Source: an uncultured bacterium
Lineage (GTDB): Bacteria > Omnitrophota > Omnitrophia > Omnitrophales > Aquincolibacteriaceae
Direction of reading: 5' to 3'
NCBI GenBank assembly: GCA_964606385.1
Contig: CAZSFZ010000001.1
Span: 136,304-200,303 of the forward strand
DNA: 64,000 nt
Translations under genes and position numbers: made by a program
Part shown: positions 650-53,140 of the stretch, piece after piece
Numbering within the stretch: the first letter of the stretch is position 1
Layout of the letters: every line of letters begins with the position of its first letter
Notes under the pieces: model-generated
Database searches by the model: none
What the model was told of the DNA's origin: nothing
The model's input: only the letters and a program-made list of their open reading frames with translations

Positions 650-660
650 TGGGTATGGCG

Positions 661-12600: not shown

Positions 12601-15600
12601 GCCGCCAGCCCGCAATCCACCGCTCACATCCCCCGTTGCATAAGAATTATTAATCGATATACCCTGGTCAACAGCCACCAAACCTCCTCCAATTCTTCCG
12701 GCTGAAACATCACCCGTAGCGTAGCTGTTTTGGAGTACGGTTGTGGAATAAAGATTGCTGATGAGTCCACCGGCATCTCCATTCGAAGTCACGTTCCCAG
12801 TGGCATAAGAGTTTGTAATCGATCCGCCAGAACTTGTTCCTATAAGTCCTCCGACACTATCACCTCCAGAGACGCTAACATTGGCATAAGCACGATCCAC
12901 GAGCCCCGAGCTATTACCTACCAGAGCCCCGGTTGAAGATAAACCTCCACCTCCGGCGCTCACCATACCAGTTACACTACCGCTTGTAAGACCGACATTC
13001 CTGATCTGACCGGATGATGTCCCAAATAATCCAACATCGGTCGCTGATGGTCGATAGATATAAAGGCCCGATATTGTATGGTCGTTTCCCTCAAATGTTC
13101 CGGAGAAACCCGCTATAGGACTAAACCCTCCATAGGTGGTACCGGATACCCAGTTCCAGGTCGCGGTTCCCGAAGCGTCAATGTTGTTGGCAAGCGTGTA
13201 AGAAGCGCCAAGGTCCACGGCTATGAGCTGGAGGTCAACGGCGTTGGTGAGGGTCGTGGTGTGCTCCTGCTGAAGGCGGGGCCTGTCCGCCATGATCCAG
13301 TTCCCGATCGTGCCGTCGCCCACCACACTGAAATCCCATCCGGTAAAGGTCGCGGCCGAAGACATCTCCTGGGTGGTCTTGGGCGTTCCCTTGCCGGTGT
13401 CGCTTTTGCCGCTGGTCTGGGAATTGTAAAAAGAATTCGTGATGGTACCCCCCGTGAGACCGCCCACAAGGCCGCCGACATTCGTGTTCGTATCGTAAAC
13501 ATGTCCTGTTGAATAAGAATTCGTGATGGAACCGGCCGTATTTTCGCCCACAAGACCGCCGATATAATCCCCAGTAACGGGCCATCCCATGTCTCCCATA
13601 ACCTCCCCGGTGTTATAGGAATTCAAAATAGTCCCGGAATTACTCCCCACCAGACCACCAGTGCGGCCCTTGTTGGCATAAGCACCGTAACTGGAAGCAT
13701 TGTAGGAATTCTCTATCGCCCCTGAGTTATCACCGACCAAGCCTCCGGCTCCCACCTGACCGAGCACATTTTCTGCCCAAACCCAGCTTGAACCGGTCAT
13801 GGAGGATTTTTGAATGGTGCCTGAATTCACACCCACAAGGCCGCCCACTTTTTGGGTCCCAAGGATCTCACTATCCGCTGTCCCGGTTGCCAGCTTAACG
13901 CGGTTCATGGTTCCGCCCTCTTGAGTCCCAACGAAAGCGCCCACATTCGAACCGCCGGTCACACCCGCTGAGGAGAGCACAACATCCTGAATCGAGGCGT
14001 TATTGGTGTACCCGAAAAGGCCGACATTGTCCTCTCCGCCGCGGCTGATTTTTAAATTAGAAATAGTTTTTGAATTACCATCGAAATTCCCGGCGAATTT
14101 TGTAGTCGCATCGCCGATCGGATCAAATCCCGCCCCGGCATTCCAACCCGAGGTGCTTGTCGCGGCAATATCATTGGCCAACTCGAAGTAAGTCCCCGCC
14201 GCCAGATATCCCCCCATGGCCTGGAGGCCATAGACATCGGAGATCATGTACGGATCCCCGGAAGCGCCAGTGCCCGTAAAGCGACTCAGCTTAGCGTCGC
14301 TATTGATCCGAAAGTCCGTGATCGAGGACCAGGCGGAAGTCGCGAGAGCGGCCGTGTAGACCGGCGTCACGCTTCTCGTTCCGGCCAGGGTCAGGATTTT
14401 CACCCCGGTCACGTCTCCAATCGTAGAATCTTTGGAGGCTTTGAGCGTCAGATCGTGATTATTGCCGGCCACGGCATAATCCCCGCTCCAGAAAATTCCC
14501 CCGAGATCATTGATGCCGTCGGAATCCGCCCAAATGGTTGTATCGCCGCTCAAGCTAAAATTTCCAAGCACATTAATGTCATCCACATCTTCGTAGCTCC
14601 CGGAAATGATCGCCCCTTCTTCGATGTCCGCGGCGTGGTCAAGGTTCTCCATCACGGCACGTCCAACTTCCATCCGGCCTCCAACTTTGAATGTCGCTCC
14701 CTGTTCAGTAAGCGTTTGAGCTTTTAAAACGCCTTGCGTCTTAATGGCGCCGGCAGCGGTCAGATCCATCTCCCCGCCGGTCGCATCCATCGTTCCTTCG
14801 TTCACAATCTCGACCTTCTTGGAAGTCACTTCAATCTTGCCGTTCAGAGCCTCCAGGAGCATTTTGTTATAGGCGGCCTGCTCGGCGGTCAGTTTGATGT
14901 TGCCGCCTTGCGCCTTCATCGCGCCAAGGTTCGTGACGCGCCCCTCCTGGGAAGTGACACGGATCTCGCCTTTCGGAGCCTCGATAGCTCCCGCGTTCGT
15001 GACATCCTGACGGGCCGTGAGCGCAGCCGCTCCTTCTGTCGCGCGGATCGTGCCCTCATTCACCACTTCGCCTTCCGTCGACTCGACTTCCACTTTCCCG
15101 TGGAGAGCCTCCATCAGCATTTTGTTGTAGGCGGACTGCTTGGAGGTGAGATGAAGCACACCTTCGTCCGCTTTCATCGTCCCCTTGTTCGTGATGGCGC
15201 CTTCCGTCGAAACCACGCGAACCTCACCGCCTAAAGAGCTCATGATGGCTTCATTCACGATATCCCGTTTCGCGGTCACCTCCACCTTGCCCTTGTCCGC
15301 CATCATCGTTCCCTGATTGGTCACGTTGCCCGAGACCGACTCAACCTTGATCGAACCTTCCTGGGCTTTTATCAGAGCCTCATTCATGATGTCGTCCAGG
15401 ACACGCGCTTCGATCTTTCCCTGCTCGGCATCGATCATCCCCGTGTTCGTGAGACCTCCCTGCGCCGCCTCGATCTTGACCTCCCCGCCGCGCGCCTGCA
15501 CCAGGGCCTCGTTATAGATATCATCCAGGGACTGGAACTCGATCACACCGTTATCCGCCATGACAGCGCTGACGGCATTCCCATGCTTCTCAAGGCTGAT

Positions 15601-16452
15601 GGCTTTCTCAAAAAGCCCGTCCATGGCTTGAGCGTTCAAAATCACCTTGCCACCGTCAGCCGAGATCGTCCCCGTGTTCTTGATCTGGGATTCAAGACCC
15701 AGTTTATTGGCCGTCGCTTCATCAACCCCGATCGAAACGAGCCCGTCCCCGGAAATACCCACCGTTACCGTATTGCCCGCAGCGAGAGCGACCGTGCCCA
15801 TTGGCACTTCGATCGTCCCCTTGTTCTCAATGGCATTAGCGATGAGCGCTACCAGGTCCGCATTGTTGCCCACGATCTTGCCGTCATTGGTGAGAAAGCC
15901 GCCTCCCCCTGAAAAGGAATACTGCCGTGCGAAAAAGTCCGTCGCGCTGGTGTTAAGAGCCAGGGTGGAAGCAAGGAGTGAGGCATTGTTCAGGTTGATC
16001 ATGGCGCTTGAGCCGATATTAATCCCGGCGATATTCTGGAGGATAAAGGCAAGGTTTGAGAGGTTCATCGTGCCGAAAATGTTCGAGGCCTGGCCGCCGT
16101 TCACGAGAAGCGCCAAGCTCGCGTTCTGGCTGAGGCCTGAGATGTTATAAATATTATTCTGCGGCACGTTGAACTCGGGGACGTTCCACACGGGGTTCCC
16201 CGTGACGTTCCAGTTCGTGGTGTTCTCCTGCGTGTTGACTTCTACACTGCCGCCTTCCAGGTTGATCGTCTCGGCCATCACCGGACTCACGCACATCGAC
16301 CACGCAAACACAAAAGCTGTAAACGCCGCCGTCGCTTTCCGCCAACCCATCCGACCCCGGAGGTCGGATTGGGGCAACTCTGTGGCTAGGCCGGTGGCAC
16401 CAGATTGACTTGGCACAGCCCTGTTCTGGGTTGTATATATTTTCTTTTTCAT
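661..16452 (-). CDS. giant TpsA/filamentous-haemagglutinin-like exoprotein (about 5263 aa): TPS domain, FHA beta-helix, GLUG-motif modules, PATR-like beta-helix, about 19 MBG-like repeats, Pro-rich stalk, C-terminal FecR-like domain
   Basis: This is one uninterrupted ORF.
- Start: the preferred start is ATG 16450-16452 (MKKKIY...) rather than the ORF-track start 16494.
- N-terminus: there is an ESPR-like N-terminus followed by a hydrophobic signal segment (AAFTAFVFAWSMCVSPVMA).
- TPS domain: residues about 60-330 align to the haemagglutination-activity/TPS domain (WNVPEFNV...SLALLVNGGQASNIFGTMNLSN.AFILQN.AGINIG...LLASTLALN..DFFA versus the FhaB INWQSFNI...ALNRVTGG.PS.ILG.L.ANGQVFLVNPNGILFG...LVASTLDI).
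- Repeat families: there are many GGLVG/GGLIG GLUG motifs, a GGTFNG 10-12-aa periodic beta-helix, and KVYDQTT...TLSGITASNK 83-aa repeats.
- Pro-rich stalk: PPTVVDPPPIVIPPQPPVITPPP.
- C-terminus: the last about 100 aa (ILPGDEVKTADRNSVEVLMDDGKTGRVEIKEGSLFRIQ...SRFEVRTPTALTGVRGTTFEVTV) match the FecR-domain pattern. Confidence 0.85.
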   Translation of the reverse strand: MKKKIYTTQNRAVPSQSGATGLATELPQSDLRGRMGWRKATAAFTAFVFAWSMCVSPVMAETINLEGGSVEVNTQENTTNWNVTGNPVWNVPEFNVPQNNIYNISGLSQNASLALLVNGGQASNIFGTMNLSNLAFILQNIAGINIGSSAMINLNNASLLASTLALNTSATDFFARQYSFSGGGGFLTNDGKIVGNNADLVALIANAIENKGTIEVPMGTVALAAGNTVTVGISGDGLVSIGVDEATANKLGLESQIKNTGTISADGGKVILNAQAMDGLFEKAISLEKHGNAVSAVMADNGVIEFQSLDDIYNEALVQARGGEVKIEAAQGGLTNTGMIDAEQGKIEARVLDDIMNEALIKAQEGSIKVESVSGNVTNQGTMMADKGKVEVTAKRDIVNEAIMSSLGGEVRVVSTEGAITNKGTMKADEGVLHLTSKQSAYNKMLMEALHGKVEVESTEGEVVNEGTIRATEGAAALTARQDVTNAGAIEAPKGEIRVTSQEGRVTNLGAMKAQGGNIKLTAEQAAYNKMLLEALNGKIEVTSKKVEIVNEGTMDATGGEMDLTAAGAIKTQGVLKAQTLTEQGATFKVGGRMEVGRAVMENLDHAADIEEGAIISGSYEDVDDINVLGNFSLSGDTTIWADSDGINDLGGIFWSGDYAVAGNNHDLTLKASKDSTIGDVTGVKILTLAGTRSVTPVYTAALATSAWSSITDFRINSDAKLSRFTGTGASGDPYMISDVYGLQAMGGYLAAGTYFELANDIAATSTSGWNAGAGFDPIGDATTKFAGNFDGNSKTISNLKISRGGEDNVGLFGYTNNASIQDVVLSSAGVTGGSNVGAFVGTQEGGTMNRVKLATGTADSEILGTQKVGGLVGVNSGTIQKSSMTGSSWVWAENVLGQVGAGGLVGDNSGAIENSYNASSYGAYANKGRTGGLVGSNSGTILNSYNTGEVMGDMGWPVTGDYIGGLVGENTAGSITNSYSTGHVYDTNTNVGGLVGGLTGGTITNSFYNSQTSGKSDTGKGTPKTTQEMSSAATFTGWDFSVVGDGTIGNWIMADRPRLQQEHTTTLTNAVDLQLIAVDLGASYTLANNIDASGTATWNWVSGTTYGGFSPIAGFSGTFEGNDHTISGLYIYRPSATDVGLFGTSSGQIRNVGLTSGSVTGMVSAGGGGLSSTGALVGNSSGLVDRAYANVSVSGGDSVGGLIGTSSGGSITNSYATGNVTSNGDAGGLISNLYSTTVLQNSYATGDVSAGRIGGGLVAVDQGISINNSYATGDVSGGLRAGGLVGWLLFDASLTNTYASGSVTGGSDIGGLVGLQQAGTANITHSFSKGLVSGGTGNMGGLIGRVADAVVLTQSFYDSETSGQSDTGKGVPKTTTEMMTQATFTGWDFNIDGTGAGSGAWVMAGYPHLQHEWTPTISNASQLQMMALDLDAAYTLAGDIDASGTSGWNAGAGFSPVGYDTSHPFTGSFEGNNHTINGLFMNRGDYTGLFGVWGTGGFEGQGGTLQNVGLTGANISGTSYVGALVGEVLTGVLTNVYSTGSVFGTGSVGGLIGRFGSGAADSTLSNSHSDANVNSTGGSVGGLIGQSWEDVTTSYATGDVSGTIGVGGLIGGRHMGTLSHSYATGDVTASSIMAGGLVGSNVGGFSNSFATGNITGTDRVGGLVGNQNGGDVSDVYAIGSVTGTDKVGGLIGVLAGGSLSQAYSTGSVTADTNKGGLVGYDEYGPVYTSNFWNTTTSGMADGVGNQDPEPAGVTGKTTAEMMQSATFSGWDFTVDGVAAGSGDWIMAGMPHLQIEWSTDIKTLAQLQMMALNLDASYTLANDIDASETSNWNSSAGFSSVGTFTGVLDGGYHEISNLKATQGLFSVLSGGGTIVRNLGLLNVTGTGGSVALTARDSVSITNVYATGTITGGVAGGLVGWLGSAFIDNSYSAVNVTGSGSTGGIAGSLSGASVGQPLPEIRNSYATGSVTNTGSDNWARAGGAVGYTCVGKLINSYATGQVSGGTHAGGLVGYIDFDQMTITNSFWNVETTGQATSAYNHGTGLTIQQMTQQSNFTGWDFDVDGVSAGHNGTWIMAGNPHLQMEWSENITNAAQLQMMALDLDANYTLANNIDASATTTWNWNGSSYLGFDPVGYSTGNWFDPPTNPFTGSLNGAGYGITGLTINRGSENTVGLFGAISGSNISRVGLLGGSVIGADNVGSLVGHAYNSTLSLNYATGTVSGSDQVGGLVGQAGSSSITLSYATGNVTGTGYNTGGLVGDNYQSSIGNSYATGAVSGNAYVGGLVGYNSDSSLTNTFSTGNVSGNSSVGGLIGSYSGGTLTNNYWDTETSGLATSAGEGAGAVEGKTTAQMMQQATFSNWDFRIFQDDRVGIWTMAGLPHLQNEWTDVITNVVQLQMMALDLDANYTLANDIDASGTAGWNGGAGFNPIGEDYGTDFFSGTLDGNNKTITGLTINRPAENYVGLFGAITNSTIQDLGLVNVAVTGSSAVGALAGHNTSSVVSNTYSTGTVTGSSEGSESAAGGLIGKNYGTLTATYSTATVSGNRMVGGLVGEGGSGAYYGRSIIQDSYATGAVTGANNEVGGLSGTLGTAYDGVAEINNSYATGLVISSGYEGGLVGTRYGGTITNSFWNTETSGAAFGVADGIQDGVTGLTTAQMMDPVIYGNAGWDIFTPVWDTYTDALPTLNWQNAAAGTAAYIWSGNSDTDWSTASNWSTGSAPDSNSTVYVFNRANDPLTASSVELQALNILSSGILTLGDTLTVNGALANDGTITGSTVINNGTWSGAGTTNSAVDNFGTVSGGTFNGVYSTDYSDGTITGGTFNGLVNNYGWGTISGGTFHGDVYNDYLISDGTFNGSVTNYTFNAGGGIYGGTFTGGVNNIFTGEISGGTFNCGVTNGGVGSTTAWIFDGTFNGAVFNYEYGTIYGGTFNSSVSNDAGDLSGGIFNGSVTNSALVFDGTFNSVVENAGTIFGGTFTGDLTDWGIVDGGNFGGLQSMTLETGGTWDYDTEVGGSIINKGIIAAGTFTGAVENRLHIAAGTFNGTVINSGAITGGTFALTGDYTQTAGSFSGVTDSMTMANFDLQGGTFQAPDMTVSGAFKVSDGAFTSGSSVITLQGANATYLSTDVNAANTDWMDGTLNIQSDANQALPGDETYGILQLGRNAGTGTTLYTMGSNTSIGTGFTIDLDDAKLVLTVNAMGVNKIYNGTTTATATFTDDHITGYYEAYTINYTASFADKNVGTGKAINVTGISLSGASASYYQLAFSSDATTADITAKAITLSGITASNKVYDQTTAVTVSTTGADFAGMIDGDELTVSSTGVFSDKNVAAGKTVTLTNTLGGADLANYSITDQGTTTADITAKAVTLSGITASNKIYDATTDATVSTVGATFTGMIGGDELTVSSTGVFSDKNVASGKTVTLTNTLGGADLANYTITDQGTTTANITAKAVTLSGITASNKVYDQTTDATVSTAGAVFTGMVDGDDLTVSSTGTFSDKNVAVGKTVTLTNTFDGADLGNYTITDQGTTTADITKAAVTLSGITASNKVYDQTTDATVSTAGAVFSGMYAGDELTVLSTGAFSDKNAADGKTVTLTNTFGGADLANYEITDQGSILANITKAVATLSGITASNKVYDSTTAATVNDTGAIFGGLYSGDELTVSSTGVFSDKNAGDGKTVNLSNILGGVDLGNYTVIDQTTTTADITKAAVTLSGITASNKVYDQTTAATVSTSGALFAGKYDGDVLTVSSTGTFSDKNVANGKTVTLANTFGGTDLGNYNITDQGTTTADITKATVTLSGITASNKVYDQTIAATVSTAGADFAGKYVGDVLTVSSTGTFSDKNVGTGKTVTLANSFGGADLGNYNITDQGTTTADITKATVTLSGITASNKVYDQTTAATVSTVGAAFAGKYAGDVLTVSSTGTFGDKNVANGKTVTLVNTFGGTDLGNYNIADQGTTTANITQKAVTLGGITASSKVYDTTTDVNVSSAGANFSGLIAGDELTVSSAGVFSDKNAGIAKQVDLTNVLGGADLNNYMVIDQQTTTADITKATVTLSGITASNKIYDSTTAATVSTSGAAFAGKYAGDELTVSSAGTFSDKNVGVGKTVTLANTISGADAGNYTVVDQGTTVADITKASVTLSGITASDKFYDGTTDAAISTAGAIFEGKYAGDTLTVSSTGVFDDKNVGTEKIVTLTNILGGSDLENYQIADQATTTADIQARGVAIDLTGSRVYDGTVNLAAEIFTLSNLVGGETLTLTGVGTMADKHVADGKTVTLGTLALGDGMNGGLASNYTLTGGTHTVDIIAAPIMISAENISKTYDGGLAAPTTARVYSGQLFDTDTILGGTFAFTDKNVGYANKTITVSDVTVSDGNGGGNYAITYVDNTTSTINPYVVDLSGSRVYDGTLEVAAGVFSLSALVGTETLTLTGIGRMDDKNVGIHKAVTTGTLALGDGMNGGLAGNYTLEGGTHTVNIGKATAALSGVAALNKVYDATTAAAVSTAGAAFAGKYGNDVLTVSSTGTFSDKNVAAGKTVTLVNTFGGSDLGNYNITDQATTTADITKATVTLSGITASNKVYDQTTVATTNTAGAAFAGKYAGDVLTVSSTGTFGDKNVGTGKTITLVNTFGGADLGNYNITDQGTTTADITKASVTLSGITASNKVYDQTTAATVSTAGAAFAGKYDGDVLTVSSTGVFSDKNVANGKTVTLTNTFGGTDLGNYQITDQGMTTASITARPLTITATGIHKVYDGTTAAAATLSDNRLTGDVLAPSYTTATYADSLVGTSKPVTVSGISLSGVDSYNYAYNAVATTLADITPVPVVIVTPPTVVDPPPIVIPPQPPVITPPPVVIVEPPAITNPPINITPPTPPTPPVTPPTTPVTPPTQPVTPPAQPSVPAAGSTPSSGTVSSQPATTPAAGNTASSGTTGTSAASQENSSSSSTANSSSSSAGRQGDNDSGQASEGEDSREQGAIAKDEAAAENDGVAPSKEEAANIQWRDVPIDVMMKNQDNRKFLTDVRVLEGAVYVIDAVNTMSLLGMGDSMRVLYKKRVSKAIKAPKKVDIQERQKSREEIAEAKDLVVETIPQEAPKEPATPEMKEALTQILEKVKEEPEVEPAPANRVLKSASPVIMHQTKTGERYGTLKNPGRDVFVRSNGGDWKAAADGMIILPGDEVKTADRNSVEVLMDDGKTGRVEIKEGSLFRIQKAETDSVTGAKTTLLDLAMGKILVKVESLKGNSRFEVRTPTALTGVRGTTFEVTVKEKA
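2040..6870 (-). repeat. intragenic tandem array of about 19 units of about 249 bp (83-aa MBG-like repeats) with high nucleotide identity
   Basis: Near-identical DNA blocks recur every about 249 nt (for example ...gtcgtagtcccctgatcggtaatgttgtaattgccgagatcg...). At protein level the repeating unit is ITKA(A/T)VTLSGITASNKVYDQTT..GDxLTVSSTG.FSDKNV..GKTVTL.NT.GG.DLGNY.ITDQGTTTAD. Confidence 0.8.
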
Positions 16453-16633
16453 TTTTTTGCCTCTAATAGAAGAGTACTCTACAAAACAATACAAAACAAT
16501 AGCACCTTAATACTTTTTTATATTATTTTTCTATTTATAGCTATATATAGCGTTTTTCATAGTATTTTATAGTATGTTTAAACACAAAGATGATCATATT
16601 TTGAGCATCATAAAAAATAAGGATTTTTGACGC
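16453..16633 (-). promoter_or_regulatory. AT-rich island carrying the promoter/regulatory region of the giant gene
   Basis: This is about 180 bp of roughly 25% GC in an otherwise roughly 58% GC window, between the GH57 stop (TAG 16634-16636) and the giant-gene start. It contains a tandem 10-mer acaaaacaat x2 (16481-16500), the palindrome ctatatatag (16541-16550) and the palindrome atgatcat. No confident -35/-10 pair could be assigned. Confidence 0.5.
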
Positions 16634-19126: not shown

Positions 19127-19287
19127 AATCGGTAAACCCTCTTTTGATTCACTCAAAGAGGCAACTTTTGGGGAAAATTATAGCACGGCAGGAAACCGGG
19201 CGGGATGGTTTTTCTTTTAAAGCTCCAAAAACCAATCTCCAAATTCCAAACAAACCCGTTTGACTTTTGGATCTTCCCAGCAGAGGT

Positions 19288-23576: not shown

Positions 23577-23744
23577 TTGTTTTCTCCCTTGCCCCGTTAG
23601 AGATCTGACCGACCCTATCGGAGTCTATTTTATTGTTTGTTGCGTATTATTTCTGAAATCCTTTTTCGCGATATTTAAATCTCTAACGGGGTTAATTCGG
23701 ACCTATTTCTTAGCTTCACTTCCGTTCGCTAAGGGATGTCCTCA

Positions 23745-25874: not shown

Positions 25875-27536
25875 TCAGGCCTTCGGCGGCTCGATCAAAG
25901 GGGGCGTGTAGCCACTGAACCGCCGGGGGTTAGCCTTGCCAAACTCGTTAAAAATTGTTTCGATCTCGTCGTAATCCAGCTCGTTCTTCTGAAGCAGTTC
26001 ATGCGCAAAGCGTTCAAACAGGTCTTTTTCCGACCGAAGCAAATTTTCGACATCGGTCATGGCTTCCTTCAGAATCCTATCGACGTCCTGATTCAGACGC
26101 AATTTAACATCCTCCGAAAGGAGAAGCGCGTTTCCGTCCCTGTAAACCGTATAATCCCCGACCAGCCCCGACGGCCCCATGCCGATCACCCAGACCATGA
26201 AATGAGCAAGATTCATGGCTTGTTTGAAATCGGAGGTCACTCCGGTCGTCGTGGTGTTGAACTTGACCTTTTCGGCCACATACCCGGCCAGACAAATCTT
26301 GATATCGGCCAAAAGGGTTTCACGATCGCGGCCGTGCCATTCTTCAATGGACGTCGGGTGGACCACCCCCAAAGAAGATTTTCGCGGGATGATGGAAGCT
26401 TTGAACACATCGTCGCGGGGATGCAGGAGATAGGTCACCATCAAATGACCGGTCTCATGATAAGCCGTCATTTCCCTCTCGCGGGCATTCACGGTAAGTT
26501 TTTGTTTCATCCCGAGTTCGATCCTCTCGATTGCCTCAGAAAGATCCTTAAGCCCCACCACATCCTTTTTGTTGCGGGTGGCGATCAGTGCTGATTCTTT
26601 CACGATATTTTCGATATCGGCCGGCGATTTATCGACGGCTTTGCGCGCCAGACGTTTACAATCGATCGCTGCTTCGTATTTGATCTTGCTGAGATAAAAA
26701 CGGAAAAGCGACTCCCGGCCTTCAAGACTGGGTTTTTTGATGTAAACCTTGCGATCAAAACGGCCGGGGCGTAACAACGCGGGATCCAGTACGTCCTCCG
26801 AAGCGTTCGTCGCGCCGATCACAATGATATTTTCCGACCGGTCCCCCAAGCCGTCCATGGCCACCAGAAGCTGGTTTTGAGTCGTGTTCGCCTCCGCGCC
26901 GCCGAACTGGTTGAACGTCCGGCGATGCCCCATCGCATCCATCTCGTCGATAAAAACGATGCACCCGCCGAAACCGTAAGCAAGCCTTGCCGCCTTTTTA
27001 AAAAGTTGGCGTACGCGACTTGCGCCCACGCCGACAAACACCTCGTTGAATTCGCTCGCGGCCATGCTCAGGAAAGGAAGCCCTGCCTCAGTCGCGATCG
27101 CCTTGGCGAGATAGGTCTTCCCGCATCCGGGAGGACCCATCATCAGGATCCCTCGAAGGATCTTGCCGCCGATCTTTTTGAGACGCGCGTGATCCTTGAT
27201 CAGCTGAACCACTTCCCAGCATTCGTCCTTGGCCTCATCGATCCCGATCACATCAGAGAATCGGACATTGACCTGATTCGCCTTGATGTTCTTCTTTTCA
27301 AGTTTTGAGAACCCGCCGCGAAAGACCATCATGTACATGTAAACAAAGATCACCGAATTGATAATGACCATCAGGATCTGAAGCGGCAACTGGGCCAGCG
27401 TGATATTACGGTAGTAGCTTTCGAGAGAGGCCATGCCCCAGATCGAAAGCAGGACAAGAAGCAATCCCGCGAAAATGATGGCCGCCTTTACCCAATGATC
27501 CATCAGGAATAGCTTCCAGCGACGCCATTTATTCAT
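25875..27536 (-). CDS. ftsH: ATP-dependent zinc metalloprotease FtsH family
   Basis: There are two N-terminal TM segments, AAA+ Walker A (GPPGCGKT), Walker B (IVFIDEMD), SRH, and the HEXXH zinc site (HETGH). The periplasmic loop is unusually short. Confidence 0.8.
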   Translation of the reverse strand: MNKWRRWKLFLMDHWVKAAIIFAGLLLVLLSIWGMASLESYYRNITLAQLPLQILMVIINSVIFVYMYMMVFRGGFSKLEKKNIKANQVNVRFSDVIGIDEAKDECWEVVQLIKDHARLKKIGGKILRGILMMGPPGCGKTYLAKAIATEAGLPFLSMAASEFNEVFVGVGASRVRQLFKKAARLAYGFGGCIVFIDEMDAMGHRRTFNQFGGAEANTTQNQLLVAMDGLGDRSENIIVIGATNASEDVLDPALLRPGRFDRKVYIKKPSLEGRESLFRFYLSKIKYEAAIDCKRLARKAVDKSPADIENIVKESALIATRNKKDVVGLKDLSEAIERIELGMKQKLTVNAREREMTAYHETGHLMVTYLLHPRDDVFKASIIPRKSSLGVVHPTSIEEWHGRDRETLLADIKICLAGYVAEKVKFNTTTTGVTSDFKQAMNLAHFMVWVIGMGPSGLVGDYTVYRDGNALLLSEDVKLRLNQDVDRILKEAMTDVENLLRSEKDLFERFAHELLQKNELDYDEIETIFNEFGKANPRRFSGYTPPLIEPPKA

Positions 27537-27589
27537 AGAAAACCGCCTTTTCTCAGCTTAAGTTATAGGGATGACCCCCGAAAAACAGT

Positions 27590-27630
27590 GAGGATTATAC
27601 CTGTTTTAAAGCCAAAACACACTTACTAGA
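27590..27630 (-). promoter_or_regulatory. putative ftsH promoter (-10 TATAAT at 27594-27599 on minus strand)
   Basis: The revcomp reads ...aaacaggTATAATcctcac... about 58 nt upstream of the ftsH ATG. The -35 is poor (TGTGTT at 16-nt spacing). Confidence 0.3.
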
Positions 27631-27674
27631 ATTTCGACAGAAAAACCATTCCCTTGAGAGACGTCGGAGAGCGT

Positions 27675-27742
27675 GGAACGGGTAACGGGAAACGATAAAA
27701 GCCCCTTTGCGCAACGTTCTCCGTTAGCCGTTTCCCGGTTTC
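27675..27742. repeat. heptad AACGG motif locus 1: ggaacgg-gtaacgg-gaaacg (27675-27694) with inverted partner cgtttcccggtttc (27729-27742)
   Basis: Three NNAACGG heptamers occur in tandem. There is a 9-bp perfect inverted repeat cgggaaacg/cgtttcccg separated by about 34 nt. The locus lies between the ftsH promoter region and the stop of the 153-aa gene. Confidence 0.5.
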
Positions 27743-27745
27743 TAG

Positions 27746-28207
27746 CTACCACCAGTAATCGTCCGCTTTAGCGGACTCGGTCTCCCGAGCTTCCTGGAAA
27801 GCCTCAGGCTGCATCGCCTCGGAGCCTTCCCGGTCTGCTTCGCCTTGCACTCCTTCTTCTAAGGAAGTTTTCTCCAAAGACTCGGAGGCGGCAGGCGCCT
27901 CGGTGGGCTGTTCTTCCCACCATCCCGCGGTATCATCGGCGGCAGGGGTCTTCGCCGTCACAGGCTCCTGGGAACCTTTCTTCTCTTTGCTGAACGGAGG
28001 GTCAATAAAGAAACTTTCGCGGGGGTTGTTTTTGACGTGATACATCAGAGGACCTTTTTTGCCGTCTTTTTCCTCTTCTTTTTTCTGTTCGTAGAGAATG
28101 CCGTTCGTCTGCGTATCCCGGATAGGGTTCTCCGCCTTGCGGACCGTCCCGAGACTCAAACCCGCTAGAACAAGCAAAAAGATACAAAACCATGTGTTTT
28201 TGTTCAT
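27746..28207 (-). CDS. hypothetical small secreted acidic protein (153 aa)
   Basis: It has the signal peptide MNKNTWFCIFLLVLAGLSLGTV and an acidic, low-complexity C-terminal half ending DDYWW. Confidence 0.45.
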   Translation of the reverse strand: MNKNTWFCIFLLVLAGLSLGTVRKAENPIRDTQTNGILYEQKKEEEKDGKKGPLMYHVKNNPRESFFIDPPFSKEKKGSQEPVTAKTPAADDTAGWWEEQPTEAPAASESLEKTSLEEGVQGEADREGSEAMQPEAFQEARETESAKADDYWW

Positions 28208-28276
28208 AAGTAAAGGATAGCGGATAAGGGCGGAAAGTGCAAATTCGCTTCTGCGGCGGGAAACGTGAACGAATGC

Positions 28277-28303
28277 GTTAACCGTTCCCCGTTTCCCGTT
28301 CCC
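28277..28303. repeat. heptad AACGG motif locus 2 (minus-strand reading gggaacgg-gaaacgg-ggaacgg-ttaa), overlapping the last 8 codons and stop of uvrA
   Basis: The same GGAACGGGAAACG core as loci 1 and 3 is present. It encodes the UvrA C-terminal tail ..RERETGNG*. Confidence 0.5.
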
Positions 28304-31064
28304 TCATATACTGTTTCAGATGCTTCCCTGTATAGGAAGATTCACATTTCATAAGTCCTTCCACAGAGCCCTGATACACCACTTCCCCGCCTCGGTCGCC
28401 GCCCTCGGGGCCCAGATCGATCACATGGTCCGCGAGCCGGATGAGCCCGAGATGATGTTCGATCACAAGAAGCGAATGGCCCCGGTCCAGAAGTTCTTCA
28501 AAGGCACGGATCAGATGACGGGCATCGTCTTCATGAAGCCCCGTCGTGGGTTCGTCCAGGAGATAGAGCGAAGGGCCGGTGCTTCCTGCGGAAAGCTCAT
28601 AGGCGAGTTTCAGGCGCTGGGCTTCGCCCCCCGAAAGCGTCAGTGTCGGTTGCCCGAGCTTCAAGTATCCCAGGCCGATCTTTTGGAGGATCGAGAGTTT
28701 TTCGACCAGCCCCCTGCTGTGATCCAAAAACACCAGAACTTCGTCCACGGTCATGTTGAGCACATCATCGATATTCTTTCCTTCATAACGGATCTCCAGC
28801 ACCTCCGGCTTGAAACGTTTTCCGCGGCATTCTTCGCAGGGCACAAAAATATCCGCGAGAAAATGCATCTCGACCTTAACGGCACCATCCCCCTCGCAAA
28901 CGAGACAGCGTCCCTTTTCGACATTAAATGAAAAATAACCCGCGTCGAGACCTTCGCGCTTCGCTTCGGGGGTCGACGCGAAGACCTTGCGGACGTCCTC
29001 GAACGCCTTCATATAAGTCGCCGGATTGGAGCGCGGGGAGCGGCCCAGGGGCGACTGGTCGATCAGCACCATTTCCGAAAGATGCTCCAGCCCGCGGATC
29101 TTCTCCACAGTCCCCAATTCCTCCTGGGAGACCGGGCGCCCCTTGAACTTGAGGAAGTGGTTGTAAAGGATCTCATAAAGAAAAGTGCTTTTGCCGGAAC
29201 CGGAAACACCCGTCAGGACCGTGAATTTTCCGAGCGGGATCTCGACATTAATATTTTTAAGGTTATGCGCTTTTGCCCCCTGAACCTGAAGCTTGTGCTT
29301 TGCCGGGAGCGCCCTGGGAAGCTTGCGGTCGATCCCCCGCTTGCCTGAGAGATATTCCCCTGTCACGGAAGTCGGACACTTCTTAAGCTCCTCGACACTA
29401 CCTTGAAAAAGGAGTTCGCCGCCCTTGGCACCCCCCGCGGGGCCCAGGTCGATCACGCAATCCGCAGCCCCGATCATGGTCCGGTCATGCTCCACCACCA
29501 CGACCGTATTCCCGACATCGCGAAGCTTCCGCAGGAGCGCGATCAGCATCTGGTTGTCGCGTTCATGAAGTCCGATCGAGGGTTCATCCAGAACATAGAG
29601 CGTGTCCACCAGGGCCGACCCGAGAGAGCTCGCGAGGTGGATACGCTCCACCTCCCCGCCCGAAAGCGTCCGGGACATGCGGTCAAGCGTCAGGTACCCG
29701 AGCCCCACATCCTTCAGAAAACGCGCGCGGTGCAGCAGTTCGGTCTGAACGGGCTCCACCTTTTCCCGTTCTTCAGCGGTCAATTCCAGGGACTCCAGGA
29801 ATTTAAGGAACTCATCCATGCTGAGCGCCTGGACCTGGGCGATGTGCCGCCCCTGGATCAGGAAATCGAGTGCCTCGGGTTTCAGGCGCGTCACGCGGCA
29901 CGTTTCGCAAGGCGCGTAACCCCGGTAACGGTTGAGGAAGATCCTTACATGCATTTTGTAGGTTTTTTTGTTCATGTACTCGAAGAATTCGCGGACGCTC
30001 ACAAAATCATCCCCTTCGTAACCTTCGAGGATCCACTGACGGACTTGCGGCTTGAGTTTGGCCCAGGGGGTCCGGATCGGAATGCGCTTACGCCCGCAAA
30101 AATCCAGGAGCTGGCCTTGCTCCCACCGGGTACTGGCCTTGGTCCAAGGCTCAATGGCCCCGTCACGAATCGATTTGGAAGGATCGGGAACTACAAGATC
30201 CCAATCGACCGTGATCACGCGTCCGAATCCCTGACAGGCGGGGCAGGCGCCAAGAGGGCTGTTAAATGAAAAAAGGTTGGGAGAAGGTTCCGGGAACGAC
30301 CTCCCGCAGGAAGCGCATTGGGACCTCTCGGAAAATTTCAGGACCTCCTCCCCCGCCCACACACAAGCCTCCCCGCGGCCCAGGCGGAACGCCTGTTCAA
30401 AAGAATCCGTAAGCCTTTCCTTGTTCGACGTTCCGATCTTGATCCGGTCCACGCTGACCGACAGTTCTTTCCCGGCGGTTTTTCGCTTCAAGAGGGCCGC
30501 GCTGTCGACCCACGTACCGTCATAAAAAAAATCCGAAAAACCCTGACGCTCCAGTTCTTCCAGGTTTTCGCGGAGGTAGGGGGCGGTCTTTTTCCCGAGC
30601 GTGACCTGAAAAGCGATGCGCGCTTCCCTGCCGGAAAATTTTTCCATGAGATAAGCGGCGGCTTTCGAAGGATCGAACCGCGTGACAGGGGTTTTGCAGG
30701 CCGGGCATTGCAGCCGTCCCGCGCGCGCGAAAAGCACCCGCAGGTGGTCGTTGATCTCGGTCTGCGTTCCGACCGTGGAGCGGGCATTCGTAACGGTGTT
30801 CTTGGCCTGGATGGCCAGCGCGGGAGGGATCCCTGAGGCGGATTCAAGGTCGGGTTTTTCCATCCGCTCGAGGAACTGGCGGGCGTACGCGGAAACCGAT
30901 TCGATGTAACGCCGCTGGCCTTCCGCGTACAGCGTGTCAAAAGCGAGGGAGGATTTGCCGGAGCCGGAGACCCCGGTGATCACATAGAGTTTCCGGTGCG
31001 GAAGCTCGAGATCAAGATTTTTTAGATTGTGGGTTTTGACCCCACGGAGGCGGATCGCATCCAA
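28278..31064 (-). CDS. uvrA: excinuclease ABC subunit A
   Basis: At 928 aa, it has two ABC ATPase modules (GVSGSGKSSLAF; GVSGSGKSTFLYE), zinc-finger CxxC pairs and typical UvrA order. Confidence 0.9.
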   Translation of the reverse strand: MDAIRLRGVKTHNLKNLDLELPHRKLYVITGVSGSGKSSLAFDTLYAEGQRRYIESVSAYARQFLERMEKPDLESASGIPPALAIQAKNTVTNARSTVGTQTEINDHLRVLFARAGRLQCPACKTPVTRFDPSKAAAYLMEKFSGREARIAFQVTLGKKTAPYLRENLEELERQGFSDFFYDGTWVDSAALLKRKTAGKELSVSVDRIKIGTSNKERLTDSFEQAFRLGRGEACVWAGEEVLKFSERSQCASCGRSFPEPSPNLFSFNSPLGACPACQGFGRVITVDWDLVVPDPSKSIRDGAIEPWTKASTRWEQGQLLDFCGRKRIPIRTPWAKLKPQVRQWILEGYEGDDFVSVREFFEYMNKKTYKMHVRIFLNRYRGYAPCETCRVTRLKPEALDFLIQGRHIAQVQALSMDEFLKFLESLELTAEEREKVEPVQTELLHRARFLKDVGLGYLTLDRMSRTLSGGEVERIHLASSLGSALVDTLYVLDEPSIGLHERDNQMLIALLRKLRDVGNTVVVVEHDRTMIGAADCVIDLGPAGGAKGGELLFQGSVEELKKCPTSVTGEYLSGKRGIDRKLPRALPAKHKLQVQGAKAHNLKNINVEIPLGKFTVLTGVSGSGKSTFLYEILYNHFLKFKGRPVSQEELGTVEKIRGLEHLSEMVLIDQSPLGRSPRSNPATYMKAFEDVRKVFASTPEAKREGLDAGYFSFNVEKGRCLVCEGDGAVKVEMHFLADIFVPCEECRGKRFKPEVLEIRYEGKNIDDVLNMTVDEVLVFLDHSRGLVEKLSILQKIGLGYLKLGQPTLTLSGGEAQRLKLAYELSAGSTGPSLYLLDEPTTGLHEDDARHLIRAFEELLDRGHSLLVIEHHLGLIRLADHVIDLGPEGGDRGGEVVYQGSVEGLMKCESSYTGKHLKQYMRERETGNG

Positions 31065-37968: not shown

Positions 37969-38775
37969 CTAGGCGGCCATGCCGAGCACGTGCTGCATAT
38001 GATAAAGACCTTGCCTCTTTTTCGCAAGGAATTTTGCCGCCAGGAGGGCCCCTCGGGCAAAAGCCTCCCGGGAGGAAGCCTTATGGACCAATTCGACCCG
38101 TTCCCCGTCGCCAAAGAAGGATACCGTGTGGTCCCCAATGACATCGCCCCCGCGCAGGGCAAGGACCCCGATCTTGCCTTTTTCCCGGGCTCCCGTTTCT
38201 CCCTCACGGCCATAGATCACGTCCTTTTTCATATCCCGCCCGCGCGCCTTGAGCAGGATCTCAAGAAGCTTCAGGGCCGTACCGCTCGGTGCGTCCTTCT
38301 TCATCCGGTGATGGATCTCCATGATCTCCAGATCATAGTCCTCATCCAGCACCTTGCCGGCGATCTCGGCCAGCTTGAAAAGCAGGTTCACTCCCACGCT
38401 CATATTGGGAGATTGAACGATCGGGATCTTCTTGGAAGCCGCGGCGATCTGCCTGAGCATCGCCTGGGGGATCCCCGTCGTCCCGATCACATACGCTGTA
38501 TGGGTATTAACGGCAGCTTTAAGGTTTTCCGGTAGCGCGGAATAATGGCTGAAATCGATCAGGACATCCGCGTTCCTGAGCGTGGCCGTGGGGTCCTGCG
38601 TCACTTTGACCCCCATCAGGTCGCAGCCGATCATGGGCCCAAGGTCCTGCCCAAGGGCCGCGTGCCCGCGTTGCTCCAATCCCCCAGCGATCTTGAAAGC
38701 CTTGTCCTGAGCCGCGAGCCGGAGAATGATCTTCCCCATCCTCCCGGAAGCGCCTGCCATCACGAGCTTGATCAT
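37969..38775 (-). CDS. dapB: 4-hydroxy-tetrahydrodipicolinate reductase
   Basis: At 268 aa, it has the N-terminal GASGRMG NAD(P)-binding motif and typical DapB length; its stop overlaps the dapA region. Confidence 0.85.
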   Translation of the reverse strand: MIKLVMAGASGRMGKIILRLAAQDKAFKIAGGLEQRGHAALGQDLGPMIGCDLMGVKVTQDPTATLRNADVLIDFSHYSALPENLKAAVNTHTAYVIGTTGIPQAMLRQIAAASKKIPIVQSPNMSVGVNLLFKLAEIAGKVLDEDYDLEIMEIHHRMKKDAPSGTALKLLEILLKARGRDMKKDVIYGREGETGAREKGKIGVLALRGGDVIGDHTVSFFGDGERVELVHKASSREAFARGALLAAKFLAKKRQGLYHMQHVLGMAA

Positions 38776-39659
38776 TTGAGGACCCCCAGTTTTTTGAGGA
38801 CTTCCGCGAGCTTTTTCTCATTCTCCGGCCGCATTTCGCAAAGCGGCAGGCGGAGCTCCGGCTTGATCTTCCCCATCATGCCCAGCGCTGTCTTGACGGG
38901 GATCGGGTTCGTTTCGATGAAAACCGTTTTGGAGATCGGATAAAGTTTCTTATGGATCTTGCGGGCCTCTTCCATTTTTCCGTCCAGAGCGGCCTGCACC
39001 ATGGTCTTGACCAAACGAGGGGCGATATTCGCGACGACTGAGATCACGCCGCGAGCGCCGATCGCGATCAGGGGGAAATTCAGGGAATCCTCTCCCGAAA
39101 GCACCGGCATGTCGCAAAGCTGCATGATCTGGTCGGCCTGGTCCATGCTCCCGCTCGCTTCCTTGATCGCCACGATCGTGTCGATCGCGGAAAGCCTCGC
39201 CACCGTTTCCGGCGCAATGGAAACCCCCGTGCGGCCCGGCACATTGTAGAGCACCATCGGGATATCGACGCGGCTTGCGAGATATTGATAATGACGGAAC
39301 AGGCCTTCCTGTGTCGGTTTGTTGTAATAAGGCGTCACGACGAGCACGCCGTCGGCCTTGATCTTTTTGGCATGCTGGACGAGGCCGAGCGCTTCCGTCG
39401 TGTTGTTCGAACCGCAGCCGCAGATCACCGGCGCGCGGCGGTTCACGTACTCCACGACAAAGGTCATGGTGTCGCGATGTTCCTGGTGCGACATCGTGGC
39501 GGATTCGCCCGTGGTGCCGCACGGAACGATCACGTCCGTGCCTTCTTTCAGGTGAAAATCAATAAGCCCTTTGAGCGCCTTGTGATCCACCTTGCCGTCC
39601 TTAAACGGCGTGACCAGCGCGACCATGGAACCTTCAAAAACGGATTTTTTCTTTTTCAT
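38772..39659 (-). CDS. dapA: 4-hydroxy-tetrahydrodipicolinate synthase
   Basis: At 295 aa, it has the VALVTPF...VPCGTTGES motif and a 4-nt overlap with dapB. Confidence 0.85.
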   Translation of the reverse strand: MKKKKSVFEGSMVALVTPFKDGKVDHKALKGLIDFHLKEGTDVIVPCGTTGESATMSHQEHRDTMTFVVEYVNRRAPVICGCGSNNTTEALGLVQHAKKIKADGVLVVTPYYNKPTQEGLFRHYQYLASRVDIPMVLYNVPGRTGVSIAPETVARLSAIDTIVAIKEASGSMDQADQIMQLCDMPVLSGEDSLNFPLIAIGARGVISVVANIAPRLVKTMVQAALDGKMEEARKIHKKLYPISKTVFIETNPIPVKTALGMMGKIKPELRLPLCEMRPENEKKLAEVLKKLGVLK

Positions 39660-40468
39660 TGGAAATATTCCCCTTTGTAAACGAATTGGGCTTTGCCCTC
39701 CAAAAAGACTTTGGTGATCTCATCCCCCTGCTTCTGCATATCGATCCGGAGTTTCTCGCCGCTTTGGGTCAGCACGCTCACGGGAGAACCGACCAGCCCC
39801 TTAAGCACGCTTATGACGGCCGACGCGGTCGAACCCGTCCCACACGCGAGCGTCTCGTTCTCGACACCGCGCTCATACGTCCTCACGGCGATCTCTTTCT
39901 TGCCCCTGACCTCCACAAAATTCACGTTCGTTCCGAAGGGTTGGAAACGCGCGTGGTTACGGATCGCCTTTCCCATATCGAACACGGGAACTTTCCCGAG
40001 GTCTTCCGCGAAGATCACCGTGTGCGGCACGCCGGTGTCCAGGAACGCATAACGCACTTTCTGCTTGCAGGCTTCCAGTGTGTTTTCCATTTCAAAAATA
40101 CGCGGCTTCACCAGCTGCACCTTGATCTGGTCTTTTTCTCCGACCACCGCTTCGATCAGTCCGGACCCGGATTCAAAGGTCATGCGCGATGAATATTTCA
40201 AAATGTTGTAAGCATAAAGCGCGATGCAGCGGAAACCGTTCCCGCAGGCCGCGGCTTCCGAACCGTCCGAATTGATGATCCGCATCTTGAAATTCGCCGT
40301 CTTGGAATTCTCAAAAAGGAGGACCCCATCGGCCCCGGCCCCAAGATGAGGACGGCAGATCTCGCGGGTGAACGCAAGCGCGTCCTTCACGATCCCGCGG
40401 CGGTTGTCCACCACCACAAAATCATTTCCCGAAGCGACCATCTTGTAAAAAGGAATAGAGTTTTTCAT
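39656..40468 (-). CDS. dapF: diaminopimelate epimerase
   Basis: It has SGNDFVVVD and the two catalytic Cys contexts (ACGNG; ACGTGS). The start is taken at ATG 40466-40468 (MKNSIPFYKM). Confidence 0.85.
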   Translation of the reverse strand: MKNSIPFYKMVASGNDFVVVDNRRGIVKDALAFTREICRPHLGAGADGVLLFENSKTANFKMRIINSDGSEAAACGNGFRCIALYAYNILKYSSRMTFESGSGLIEAVVGEKDQIKVQLVKPRIFEMENTLEACKQKVRYAFLDTGVPHTVIFAEDLGKVPVFDMGKAIRNHARFQPFGTNVNFVEVRGKKEIAVRTYERGVENETLACGTGSTASAVISVLKGLVGSPVSVLTQSGEKLRIDMQKQGDEITKVFLEGKAQFVYKGEYFQ

Positions 40469-40517
40469 CGTCCAAACTAAGGTTAAGGACTTGATGCGAC
40501 TCAAGTTGCGAGGGGCG

Positions 40518-40546
40518 TATTGTACCAAAGAACCGCTTTCCGTGGA
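40518..40546 (-). promoter_or_regulatory. putative dapF promoter (minus strand: TTCCAC-17-TACAAT); the -35 overlaps heptad AACGG motif locus 3 (40531-40556)
   Basis: The revcomp reads cgtttcccgTTCCACggaaagcggttctttggTACAATacgcc, 43 nt upstream of the dapF ATG. The motif copy ggaacgggaaacg sits at 40543-40555. Confidence 0.4.
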
Positions 40547-40598
40547 ACGGGAAACGTCTATAGGAAAACCGCTGAAAAACGAGCCTTGTTCTCTTCAG

Positions 40599-41786: not shown

Positions 41787-41789
41787 CGC

Positions 41790-43298: not shown

Positions 43299-43344
43299 TT
43301 TGTTTCTTTTTCTCCGTTCTCCGGTTTTGAAGTTAGGGGCCCGA

Positions 43345-43409
43345 ATATTACAACAAAAAAGAGACACCTTCAATCAATTCGAAGGATTTCACGAAGGATC
43401 GGAAGGTGT
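43345..43409 (-). terminator. rho-independent terminator immediately after lysA
   Basis: The stem is acaccttc (43364-43371) paired with gaaggtgt (43402-43409), with an inner ccttcg/cgaagg pairing. On the minus transcript it is followed by cucuuuuuuguug. Confidence 0.6.
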
Positions 43410-43410
43410 T

Positions 43411-44685: not shown

Positions 44686-44715
44686 TTCAACACCTCATTC
44701 ATTTAACGTCATTGC

Positions 44716-44800
44716 GAGAAGCCTCGAAGCGGCGACGCGGCAATCTGGTTTAAATCGAGATTGCTTCGCTATCTACGCGGCTTGCAATGGACAGGAACCA
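44716..44800 (-). promoter_or_regulatory. structured intergenic element between argH and lysA (nested inverted repeats)
   Basis: There is an inner perfect hairpin gcaatct-N11-agattgc. An outer pairing cgaagc...gcttcg and cattgcgagaagc...gcttgcaatg has bulges. Confidence 0.35.
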
Positions 44801-44820
44801 TTCGACCTAAAAAACCAGCC

Positions 44821-46197: not shown

Positions 46198-46205
46198 AAA
46201 CCACC

Positions 46206-49598: not shown

Positions 49599-49602
49599 AA
49601 TT

Positions 49603-50527: not shown

Positions 50528-50530
50528 TTT

Positions 50531-53049: not shown

Positions 53050-53094
53050 TGTCCCTGATCTTTTTTTCTTAACGGGTGACAAGGATTGCCCCCA

Positions 53095-53128: not shown

Positions 53129-53140
53129 TATGGTAGGTGT

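Follow-up and report, generated by a model that had tools for sequence, protein, structure and literature searches.

The 64-kb stretch of Omnitrophota DNA analyzed here (hereafter the window, W; L-numbers denote the orthologous loci of relatives) contains AACGG heptamers in tandem at three places: just past the stop codon of a gene for a 153-aa secreted protein (locus 1), across the 3' end of uvrA (locus 2), and in the spacer from the lysA stop to the dapF start (locus 3). These heptads are very probably local copies of a class of intergenic tandem-heptamer palindromes found throughout the lineage, Candidatus Omnitrophota. The best explanation of the whole, in which this class membership is combined with an origin by replication slippage and a role as a hairpin at cistron boundaries, is put forward tentatively, with somewhat less than even confidence. 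Loci 1 and 2 belong to a minus-strand gene group composed of uvrA (28278-31064), the 153-aa protein gene (27746-28207), and an FtsH-like protease gene (25875-27536), and locus 3 to a second minus-strand group formed by lysA (40599-41786), dapF, and dapA; the longest dapF open reading frame (ORF) spans 39656-40528, and its start was taken as the ATG at 40468.

The AACGG heptads are non-random and present at the coordinates given in Table 1. Matches to AACGGNNAACGG with at most one mismatch numbered 19 in the 64 kb, versus 7.7 ± 2.9 in shuffled sequences, and none of 100 shuffles reached 19; for the 13-mer GGAACGGGAAACG with at most two mismatches there were 11 matches versus 4.4 in shuffles, and one of 100 shuffles reached 11. 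The frequency check proposed with the original prediction, when run on the window, thus placed the motif above chance. Chains of at least three AACGG units were confined to three arrays, all of them at loci 1 and 2; the three or four tandem NNAACGG units originally described for all three loci are therefore present at these two, while locus 3 has two units. The exact 13-mer GGAACGGGAAACG at 40544-40556 also occurs at 28290-28302 on the minus strand. Since an estimated 60 or so such pairs are expected in 64 kb, a repeated exact 13-mer is unremarkable by itself; the case for locus 3 comes from conservation among relatives and not from this match. No Rfam family matched the 64 kb at the gathering threshold, and the sole match by E-value in 27500-28400 was a snoRNA at E = 0.86, a chance match.

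At locus 2, the reading frame bore out the earlier placement of the heptads within the last codons of uvrA. The 5' arm encodes the final eight codons (RERETGNG) and the TAA stop, so that the protein ends in YMRERETGNG, and the stop codon lies in the loop of a hairpin whose 3' arm had been missed originally. This hairpin (28255-28302) has a predicted RNA fold of -26.6 kcal/mol (z = -3.0). Directly downstream lies the promoter of the 153-aa protein gene, in which a TTGCAN...TATCCT block is conserved in relatives, and locus 2 is situated at about -50 relative to its -10 box. Because only 6 nt separate this -10 box from the ATG, the mRNA of the 153-aa protein gene is probably leaderless. Locus 1 starts 6 nt past the TAG stop of the same gene (sense strand), at about -95 to -115 relative to the -10 box of the next promoter. 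Its inverted partner had been described as a 9-bp repeat; the partner is there, and it is a full inverted array of four units rather than merely 9 bp. The center of locus 1 is related to the AAAAGCTTTT center of relatives such as L011, and 27 nt, comprising the 3' arm and the adjoining center bases CTTTTA, are identical in L011. Conserved promoters come after both loci, and a scan for consensus terminators at loci 1 and 2 found none. The 153-aa protein gene (27746-28242 on the minus strand with its promoter) represents a secreted protein family restricted to Omnitrophota that matches no Pfam entry and has an invariant WW at the C terminus. In the window at 27537-27640 (minus strand) and at the orthologous loci of many species, conserved non-coding blocks (TCTCAAGRGAATG, GTCGAAAYTCTA, and AAAACRGGTATAAT) precede the FtsH-like gene; they probably constitute a regulated promoter independent of the heptads.

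Table 1. Coordinates in the window of the heptad arrays, their arms and centers, and the adjoining promoter elements
Feature	Coordinates	Strand	Description
Locus 1, 5' arm (sense)	27714-27739	-	four heptads AAACCGG GAAACGG CTAACGG AGAACGT
Locus 1, center/loop	27696-27713		sense TTGCGCAAAGGGGCTTTTAT
Locus 1, 3' arm (sense)	27675-27695	+	GGAACGG GTAACGG GAAACGA; sense TCGTTTCC CGTTACC CGTTCC
Locus 2, 5' arm	28275-28303	-	four heptads GGAACGG GAAACGG GGAACGG TTAACGC
Locus 2, 3' arm	28251-28265	-	sense CGTTCACGTTTCCCG; pairs with the 5' arm
Promoter of the 153-aa protein gene (predicted)	28214-28242	-	-35 TTGCAC, 17-nt spacer, -10 TATCCT
Locus 3	40544-40556	+	two heptads, sense CGTTTCC CGTTCC; over the -35 region of the dapF promoter
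Extended -10 of dapF (predicted)	40519-40527	-	TGGTACAAT; part of the GGTTCTTTG(A/G)TACAAT block
TAGGG-family palindrome	46206-46286	-	about five units per arm; occupies the entire argG-argH spacer, with overlap of the argG stop codon
TAGGG-family palindrome	49602-49677	-	fills the argB-argD spacer; center AAAAGCCTTTT
CCACG-family palindrome	58594-58655	-	between asd and truA
Weaker member	19219-19276	-	TTTGGAN x4 and partial partner arm; just past the stop of a flavodoxin-like gene

Heptads with other cores accompany the AACGG arrays in the window. Tandem Repeats Finder returned period-7 arrays at 28282, 46207, 49604, and 58601/58628, the units being TAGGGTA at 46207-46244 and 49604-49633 (inverted partner at 49644-49677) and CCACGGG/CTCGTGG at 58601-58658. 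The TAGGG and CCACG elements are palindromes with four to five heptads per arm that fill the spacers of co-directional gene pairs. The asd-truA spacer (58585-58656) folds at -41.8 kcal/mol, and the Shine-Dalgarno sequence of truA (GGAG) is inside the last unit of the CCACG palindrome. Periodicity was assessed by scanning for three 5-nt cores at fixed spacing, comparing period 7 with periods 5, 8, 10, 11, and 13; multiples of 3 have a coding background. Ten regions of the window were found with period 7, versus 0-2 with the other periods. The TAGGG elements are part of a same-strand amino-acid biosynthesis cluster (38772-51751, minus strand) that comprises argJ-argB-argD-argF-argG-argH, a saccharopine-dehydrogenase-like gene, dapF-dapA-dapB, and two Orn/DAP decarboxylase paralogues, of which the one at 40599-41786 was taken as lysA.

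The loci of relatives were collected using the 153-aa protein and LysA as queries. A neighboring protein, and not the raw motif, was used for genome collection, given that 14-15 specified bases would yield an estimated 1,000-4,000 chance matches in 596 Gb. All 23 genome matches to the 153-aa protein were Omnitrophota metagenome-assembled genomes (MAGs), and its homologues are named Candidatus Omnitrophota. In 365 kb of Omnitrophota loci there were 58 period-7 arrays, versus 0-4 for the remaining non-multiples of 3; the corresponding counts were 25 versus 2-4 in 305 kb of close LysA loci and 29 versus 3-17 in 502 kb of distant ones. Since the excess is strong in the close loci and weak in the distant ones, it is specific to the lineage. 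Heptad sites number 6-7 in the 64 kb of the window, and relatives have about 0.05-0.16 arrays per kb; the Xanthomonas-Nostoc type of heptamer repeat is characterized by tens to hundreds of copies in a genome. L001-L003 (obtained with the 153-aa protein) and other near-duplicate contig pairs, which are 100% identical and uninformative on unit-number polymorphism, show that the arrays assemble reproducibly. In L011, a run of N (scaffold gap or masking) at about 9809-9818 falls inside an AGAC array between the rubrerythrin gene and fba, and heptad repeats may interfere with assembly.

A palindrome census of 747 kb of related contigs, made with simple gene calling, yielded 39 palindromic period-7 elements, and a strong inverted partner accompanied 39-41 of 70 period-7 clusters. 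The elements follow one plan: two inverted arrays of 3-5 heptamers each, with about five conserved and about two variable positions in every unit. Medians are 68 nt for the length of the element and 3.6 units for that of the array, and the mean minimum free energy (MFE) is about -31 kcal/mol. Pairing between the arms occurs at 90% of the core phases and at 64% of the variable phases. A center motif AA+GC.?TT+ (AAAAGCTTTT-like) is present in 11 of the 39 elements, versus 1.6% of background intergenic windows. Elements start a median of 4 nt past the upstream stop codon (several overlap it), with a median of 37 nt remaining to the next start, and 31 of 36 are nearer the stop than the start. Co-directional gaps hold 27 of 32 arrays in a first count and 63 of 98 in a later one; most arrays called coding fall about 40 nt past a stop, inside over-extended ORF calls. 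As nearly all genes of each locus are co-directional, opposite-strand gaps were too few to separate replication polarity from transcription polarity. The purine-rich arm comes first in 34 of 36 elements; its interpretation as a sign of transcription polarity was rejected, since such palindromes read alike on both strands, and this order is a property of the class.

At least 8-10 unrelated cores (TAGGG, CCACG, AGAC, GTACGG, GGATGAC, ATAGC, and others) have this one architecture. The AACG type is the commonest family, with about 36 of some 98 arrays, followed by GTACGG/GTAAGG, AGAC, TAGGG, and CCACG. Several cores are one base apart (AACGG, TACGG, GACGG, TAAGG, and TAGGG), and the same families recur across species and at non-orthologous sites. 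The small dispersed repeat family that had been suggested from the sequence of the window was thus recovered, the AACGG arrays being one family of a dispersed, lineage-wide heptamer class. Recurrence of a few families at non-orthologous sites of different species would also fit mobile elements of the REP (repetitive extragenic palindromic) or MITE (miniature inverted-repeat transposable element) type, spread by a dedicated transposase of the RAYT (REP-associated tyrosine transposase) type that recognizes the hairpins. The two TAGGG copies of the window, which by inspection are about 85% identical over about 75 nt and have a 20-nt identical end, would agree with such a spread, as would the resemblance of locus 1, relative to L004, to an insertion of about 70 nt, and the divergence of two 99% identical contigs exactly at an array edge (see below). 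We consider this explanation very unlikely and the least probable of those weighed here: no RAYT, Y1_Tnp, or other transposase was found among the window proteins, neither a target-site duplication nor a GTAG/CGTC tag was apparent by inspection, and the single-base differences between cores fit concerted evolution in place at least equally well.

A comparison of orthologous positions revealed which features of the elements persist. Of about 24 species, at least 18 have a heptad palindrome at the uvrA 3' end, with at least eight different cores, for example GGATGGC in the 81% identical L004 and CAACG, GTAAGG, CCACG, TCAAAG, ATAGC, or GGGACT elsewhere, and the palindrome is always followed by the promoter of the 153-aa protein gene (TTGCAN, 17 nt, TATCCT, about 6 nt to the ATG). 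What is kept at this site is the structure, not the sequence. The slot after the 153-aa protein gene, that of locus 1, contains a heptad palindrome in 10 species, with the AACGG core in W, L010, L011, L013, L014, and L026, CCACG in L018, L021, and L022, and CAGAGAA in L027. In L007, L016, and L014 the slot has a canonical terminator (GC stem and T-tract), L014 being the only one with both kinds, and L004, L006, L019, and L020 have neither palindrome nor terminator there. In the rubrerythrin-fba spacer an AGAC palindrome is kept in about 10 species, and no heptad palindrome was found in that slot in L006, L019, and L023. The same spacer of the window (23577-23744, minus strand) is without the AGAC palindrome; an A-rich stretch in it is enclosed instead by the long-range 15-bp inverted repeat CCCCGTTAGAGATTT...AGATCTCTAACGGGG.

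That heptad palindromes and canonical terminators occupy the same slot in different species is the best single argument for a boundary role, and an RNA-level boundary function of the palindromes is, in our estimation, a real possibility that falls short of being probable. Under this explanation, replication slippage by the 7-nt unit would let arrays arise and change in length, an origin suggested by the variation of the dapF unit number from 1 to 3 among close relatives, and fold-back (quasi-palindrome) copying would keep the two arms alike. Transcripts of the upstream cistron would carry the element at their 3' end, where it would form a long imperfect hairpin of about -30 kcal/mol. At unit boundaries, represented by loci 1 and 2 with a conserved promoter after each, it could act as a partial or U-tract-less terminator or protect the 3' end; in the arg, asd-truA, and rubrerythrin-fba operons it could be a REP-like stabilizer or a processing site that uncouples the expression of neighboring cistrons. 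Locus 3 would then be a one-armed remnant or derivative absorbed into the dapF promoter region. The one gene of the window that clearly lies on the plus strand (53021-53899) encodes an RNase III-like protein, for which long intercistronic hairpins would be candidate substrates.

Several observations weigh against the boundary role. There is no T-tract after the hairpins (T fraction of 0.235 in the 12 nt past the 3' arm), and loci 1 and 2 do not have the GC-rich stem-loop plus U-tract of an intrinsic terminator, a type that exists in the lineage. In L014 the palindrome and a canonical terminator occur together. With symmetric scoring, G:U and A:C combinations on the sense strand numbered 83 and 78, respectively, with no excess of G:U, so that selection for pairing at the RNA level is unsupported. 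Apparent asymmetries of 83 versus 53 and 110 versus 50 were discarded as an artefact of a scoring that rewarded G:T on the scanned strand. The sense strand is favored in stability in 27 of 38 untied comparisons, a weak bias (p = 0.018) obtained from sites that are not independent. The orthologues of locus 1 in L010 and L013 have kept the 5' array and have a truncated 3' arm, and covariation at the AGAC site was uninformative, with compensatory changes in 2 of 18 pairs and cores that hardly vary. Proximity to the stop codon would also fit neutral insertions tolerated there, with the promoter and ribosome-binding site occupying the rest of the spacer. Finally, transcript ends or processing at the elements are themselves predictions.

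The center of the elements is itself palindromic and loops are often just 3-7 nt, which points to a DNA-level origin. A structural element acting on supercoiling or replication, either a cruciform or a site for gyrase or a nucleoid protein like the BIME (bacterial interspersed mosaic element)/REP sequences of Escherichia coli, could accordingly be envisaged. The entire element, including its A/T-rich AAAAGCTTTT center, is palindromic, pairing is equally good on either strand, three units make 21 bp or two turns of B-DNA, and REPs are discussed as supercoiling elements (PMC3733652). Such a DNA-level role seems improbable to us, because about 17% of the arm positions do not pair, which disfavors cruciform extrusion, and because the strong polarity towards the upstream stop codon is more simply tied to transcription or translation.

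A serious rival to the boundary hairpin, although we regard it as rather unlikely, is that the elements are neutral or selfish by-products: slippage-biased heptamer microsatellites that would become palindromic by fold-back copying and be tolerated only in the handful of functionless bases past stop codons, with no role of their own. Among long simple sequence repeats (SSRs), heptanucleotides are reported to be the most abundant class in many bacteria, with polymerase slippage as the proposed origin (Mrazek et al. 2007, as cited in later papers). Turnover of unit numbers and cores among relatives, the emptiness of the same slots in many species (the four without either element at the locus 1 slot and the three at rubrerythrin-fba), and the absence of a G:U asymmetry would all be expected from such by-products, and no regulatory role was identified for the Xanthomonas repeats by Rehm et al. 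They would explain less well why the uvrA 3' end keeps a heptad palindrome in most species despite the change of core, why one site retains its AGAC core in about 10 species, and why the 27 nt of locus 1 are identical in L011 when the neighboring protein is just 62% identical. The unit pattern of five conserved and two variable bases and the 34:2 excess of purine-arm-first elements are likewise unexpected from neutral decay.

Locus 3 differs from the other two loci in its relation to a promoter. The geometry originally described, with the array over the -35 region of the dapF promoter, proved right, and the sense array adjoins an invariant GGTTCTTTGATACAAT in about nine relatives. In close relatives this array (CGTTTCC CGTTCCC CGTTTCC) has 1-3 units in a single arm that abuts the nearly invariant GGTTCTTTGATACAAT; in the window the third unit is rearranged. 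The GGTTCTTTG(A/G)TACAAT block is nearly invariant across 10 related sequences. Upstream of the dapF array, relatives have a separate post-stop palindrome of varying family, and in L039 the array is without a complementary purine-rich AACGG partner arm, the sole upstream hairpin being an unrelated GC hairpin. A scan for terminators and promoters at locus 3 of the window gave only a weak 5-bp stem plus TTCTTTGG. On these comparisons, locus 3 is best described as a conserved, one-armed, promoter-proximal array, and among the three loci promoter linkage looks limited to it. The 5' edge of the array at the dapF promoter is the exact point of divergence of two 99% identical contigs (L051:11514 versus L052:5962), with L052 running on into another gene (MDTNRDQLKAKLLERF...), and may mark a breakpoint left by an insertion or a rearrangement.

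These features of locus 3 bear on the original proposal that the heptads are operator sites, that is, sites of a sequence-specific DNA-binding regulator comparable to those of ToxR/ToxT at ctxAB or of SARPs (Streptomyces antibiotic regulatory proteins). The fixed position of the array next to the conserved extended -10 of dapF in about nine relatives, which is what operators would show across orthologues, was seen at locus 3 and not at loci 1 and 2. The lack of a purine-rich partner arm in L039, the commonness of the AACG type, and the precedent of heptad repeats as activator sites (bioRxiv 10.1101/2021.05.14.444153; PMC5930380) would also favor an operator. As a general explanation it is nonetheless unlikely. 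A common operator for one regulator is not supported: the distances to the next promoter differ among the three loci, and the feature shared by the elements is the position after a stop codon. Correspondingly, the gene positions that had been suggested as a check are non-random with respect to the stop codon, with neither a common promoter position nor terminators at loci 1 and 2. The dapF unit number ranges from 1 to 3, the other cores have the same architecture and placement, and at the orthologous uvrA site AACGG is swapped for several of them. The flanking genes (uvrA, secreted protein, FtsH-like protease, and dapF) have no common theme, and a Pfam survey of the window proteins, the search for a cognate regulator that had been called for, gave no candidate. 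An AACGG-specific operator would be plausible for locus 3 only. A further reading, which we rate as a long shot, is a dedicated nucleic-acid-binding machinery with a 7-nt register that would read the boundary palindromes with one module per unit (five bases contacted, two skipped) and with paralogous readers for related cores such as AACGG, TACGG, GACGG, and TAGGG; the repeats of Xanthomonas, cyanobacteria, and Beggiatoaceae would then belong to the same system, and at the dapF array a reader would have been recruited to control transcription.

The window also has repeats of other kinds and a canonical terminator. A giant ORF (661-16494, minus strand) codes for 5,277 aa, with no fewer than 19 YDG domains in the C-terminal 2,779 residues. 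Directly after it, at about 585-653 (minus strand), comes a textbook example of an intrinsic terminator, a stem of about 25 bp with TTTTT behind it, so that canonical terminators coexist with heptad palindromes in the source genome. Within the ORF, at 4004-6093, a 258-bp unit is repeated in tandem about eight times (70% matches). Upstream of this ORF, a very AT-rich stretch (16495-16633) contains overlapping 10-13-bp tandem repeats (TACAAAACAA, CTATTTATAG, and others) that are unlike the heptads, and it may be a promoter or regulatory region.

Among known repeats, those closest to the Omnitrophota elements are the heptamers found between genes in Xanthomonas (GGGAATC), Nostoc, and Calothrix. 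The G-rich repeats of Xanthomonas (GGGAATC) and Nostoc PCC 7120 (GGGGA(C/T)T) were described by Rehm et al. (2015; PMC4692102): those of Xanthomonas mostly have 4 units, form 70-75 convergent inverted pairs per genome, are intergenic in 89-93% of cases, have an average distance of 28 nt to the 5' neighboring ORF versus 160 nt to the next, and are mostly transcribed. The Omnitrophota elements resemble this type in the 7-nt unit with a period-7 excess, the arrays of about four tandem units in which some positions are conserved and others variable, the intergenic convergent inverted pairs close to the 5' ORF and mostly between co-directional genes, and the variation of length and sequence among close relatives. 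The AACGG unit, when rotated, reads GGG(A/G)AAC, one or two bases from GGGAATC. They differ in belonging to another phylum, in abutting or overlapping the stop codon, and in having at least 8-10 core families, most of which (AGAC, CAACG, CCACG, ATAGC, and TCAAAG) are not G-rich; the A/T-rich palindromic center and the purine-arm-first rule are unreported for Xanthomonas. Because most Omnitrophota cores are not G-rich, G-quadruplex formation cannot be the unifying property. A G-quadruplex reading of the AACGG arrays themselves was dropped because they have too few tracts of three or more G: by inspection three at locus 2 and one each at loci 1 and 3, where at least four would be needed.

Resemblances to other repeat systems are more limited. 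The short tandemly repeated repetitive (STRR) sequences of Calothrix PCC 7601 and heterocystous cyanobacteria, as cited in later papers, are intergenic, tandem, and of several heptanucleotide families within one lineage, three of them known in Calothrix, and heptamers are over-represented among long SSRs as well. TAACTGA repeats of marine Beggiatoaceae (MacGregor 2015; PMC4679880) form intergenic arrays of 2-6 heptamers that are lineage-restricted yet patchy across phyla, and a post-transcriptional role has been proposed for them; they have a single core in nearly always direct orientation (one inverted case) just 5' of start codons, whereas the Omnitrophota elements are inverted pairs just 3' of stops. 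With REPs and BIMEs (PMC3733652), the elements share the form of short, imperfect, dispersed palindromes in 3' or intercistronic position between co-directional genes, for which mRNA stabilization, termination, and supercoiling have been proposed; unlike them, REPs have no tandem heptamers, bear a GTAG or CGTC tag, and are associated with transposases of the RAYT type. The ToxR/ToxT (TTTTGAT at ctxAB) and SARP arrays are comparable to locus 3 as direct heptads at or over the -35 box whose copy number varies among strains, and differ in that loci 1 and 2 are not positioned at promoters. SARP repeats are spaced 11 nt apart. STRRs have been described mainly as direct tandem arrays for fingerprinting, and to our knowledge a regular palindromic arrangement adjacent to stop codons is not part of their definition.

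These comparisons indicate that the Omnitrophota elements are neither REPs nor canonical terminators nor an Rfam family. They are a new phylum, with many cores, for a known class of intergenic heptamer repeats and no new operator system; our literature search found no paper on such repeats in Omnitrophota. Intergenic heptamer repeats have been noted in several phyla since 1990 without an established function or an explanation of the 7-nt unit. The comparison of many cores speaks against explanations tied to a particular core, for example G-quadruplexes or one regulator, and suggests that what matters is the hairpin together with its 7-nt register, within a plan shared despite unrelated cores: a stop-adjacent palindrome with the purine arm first and an A/T-rich center. 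In practical terms, the elements lengthen ORFs, as in the uvrA tail, fill operon spacers, and break assemblies, and they matter for the annotation of Omnitrophota MAGs.

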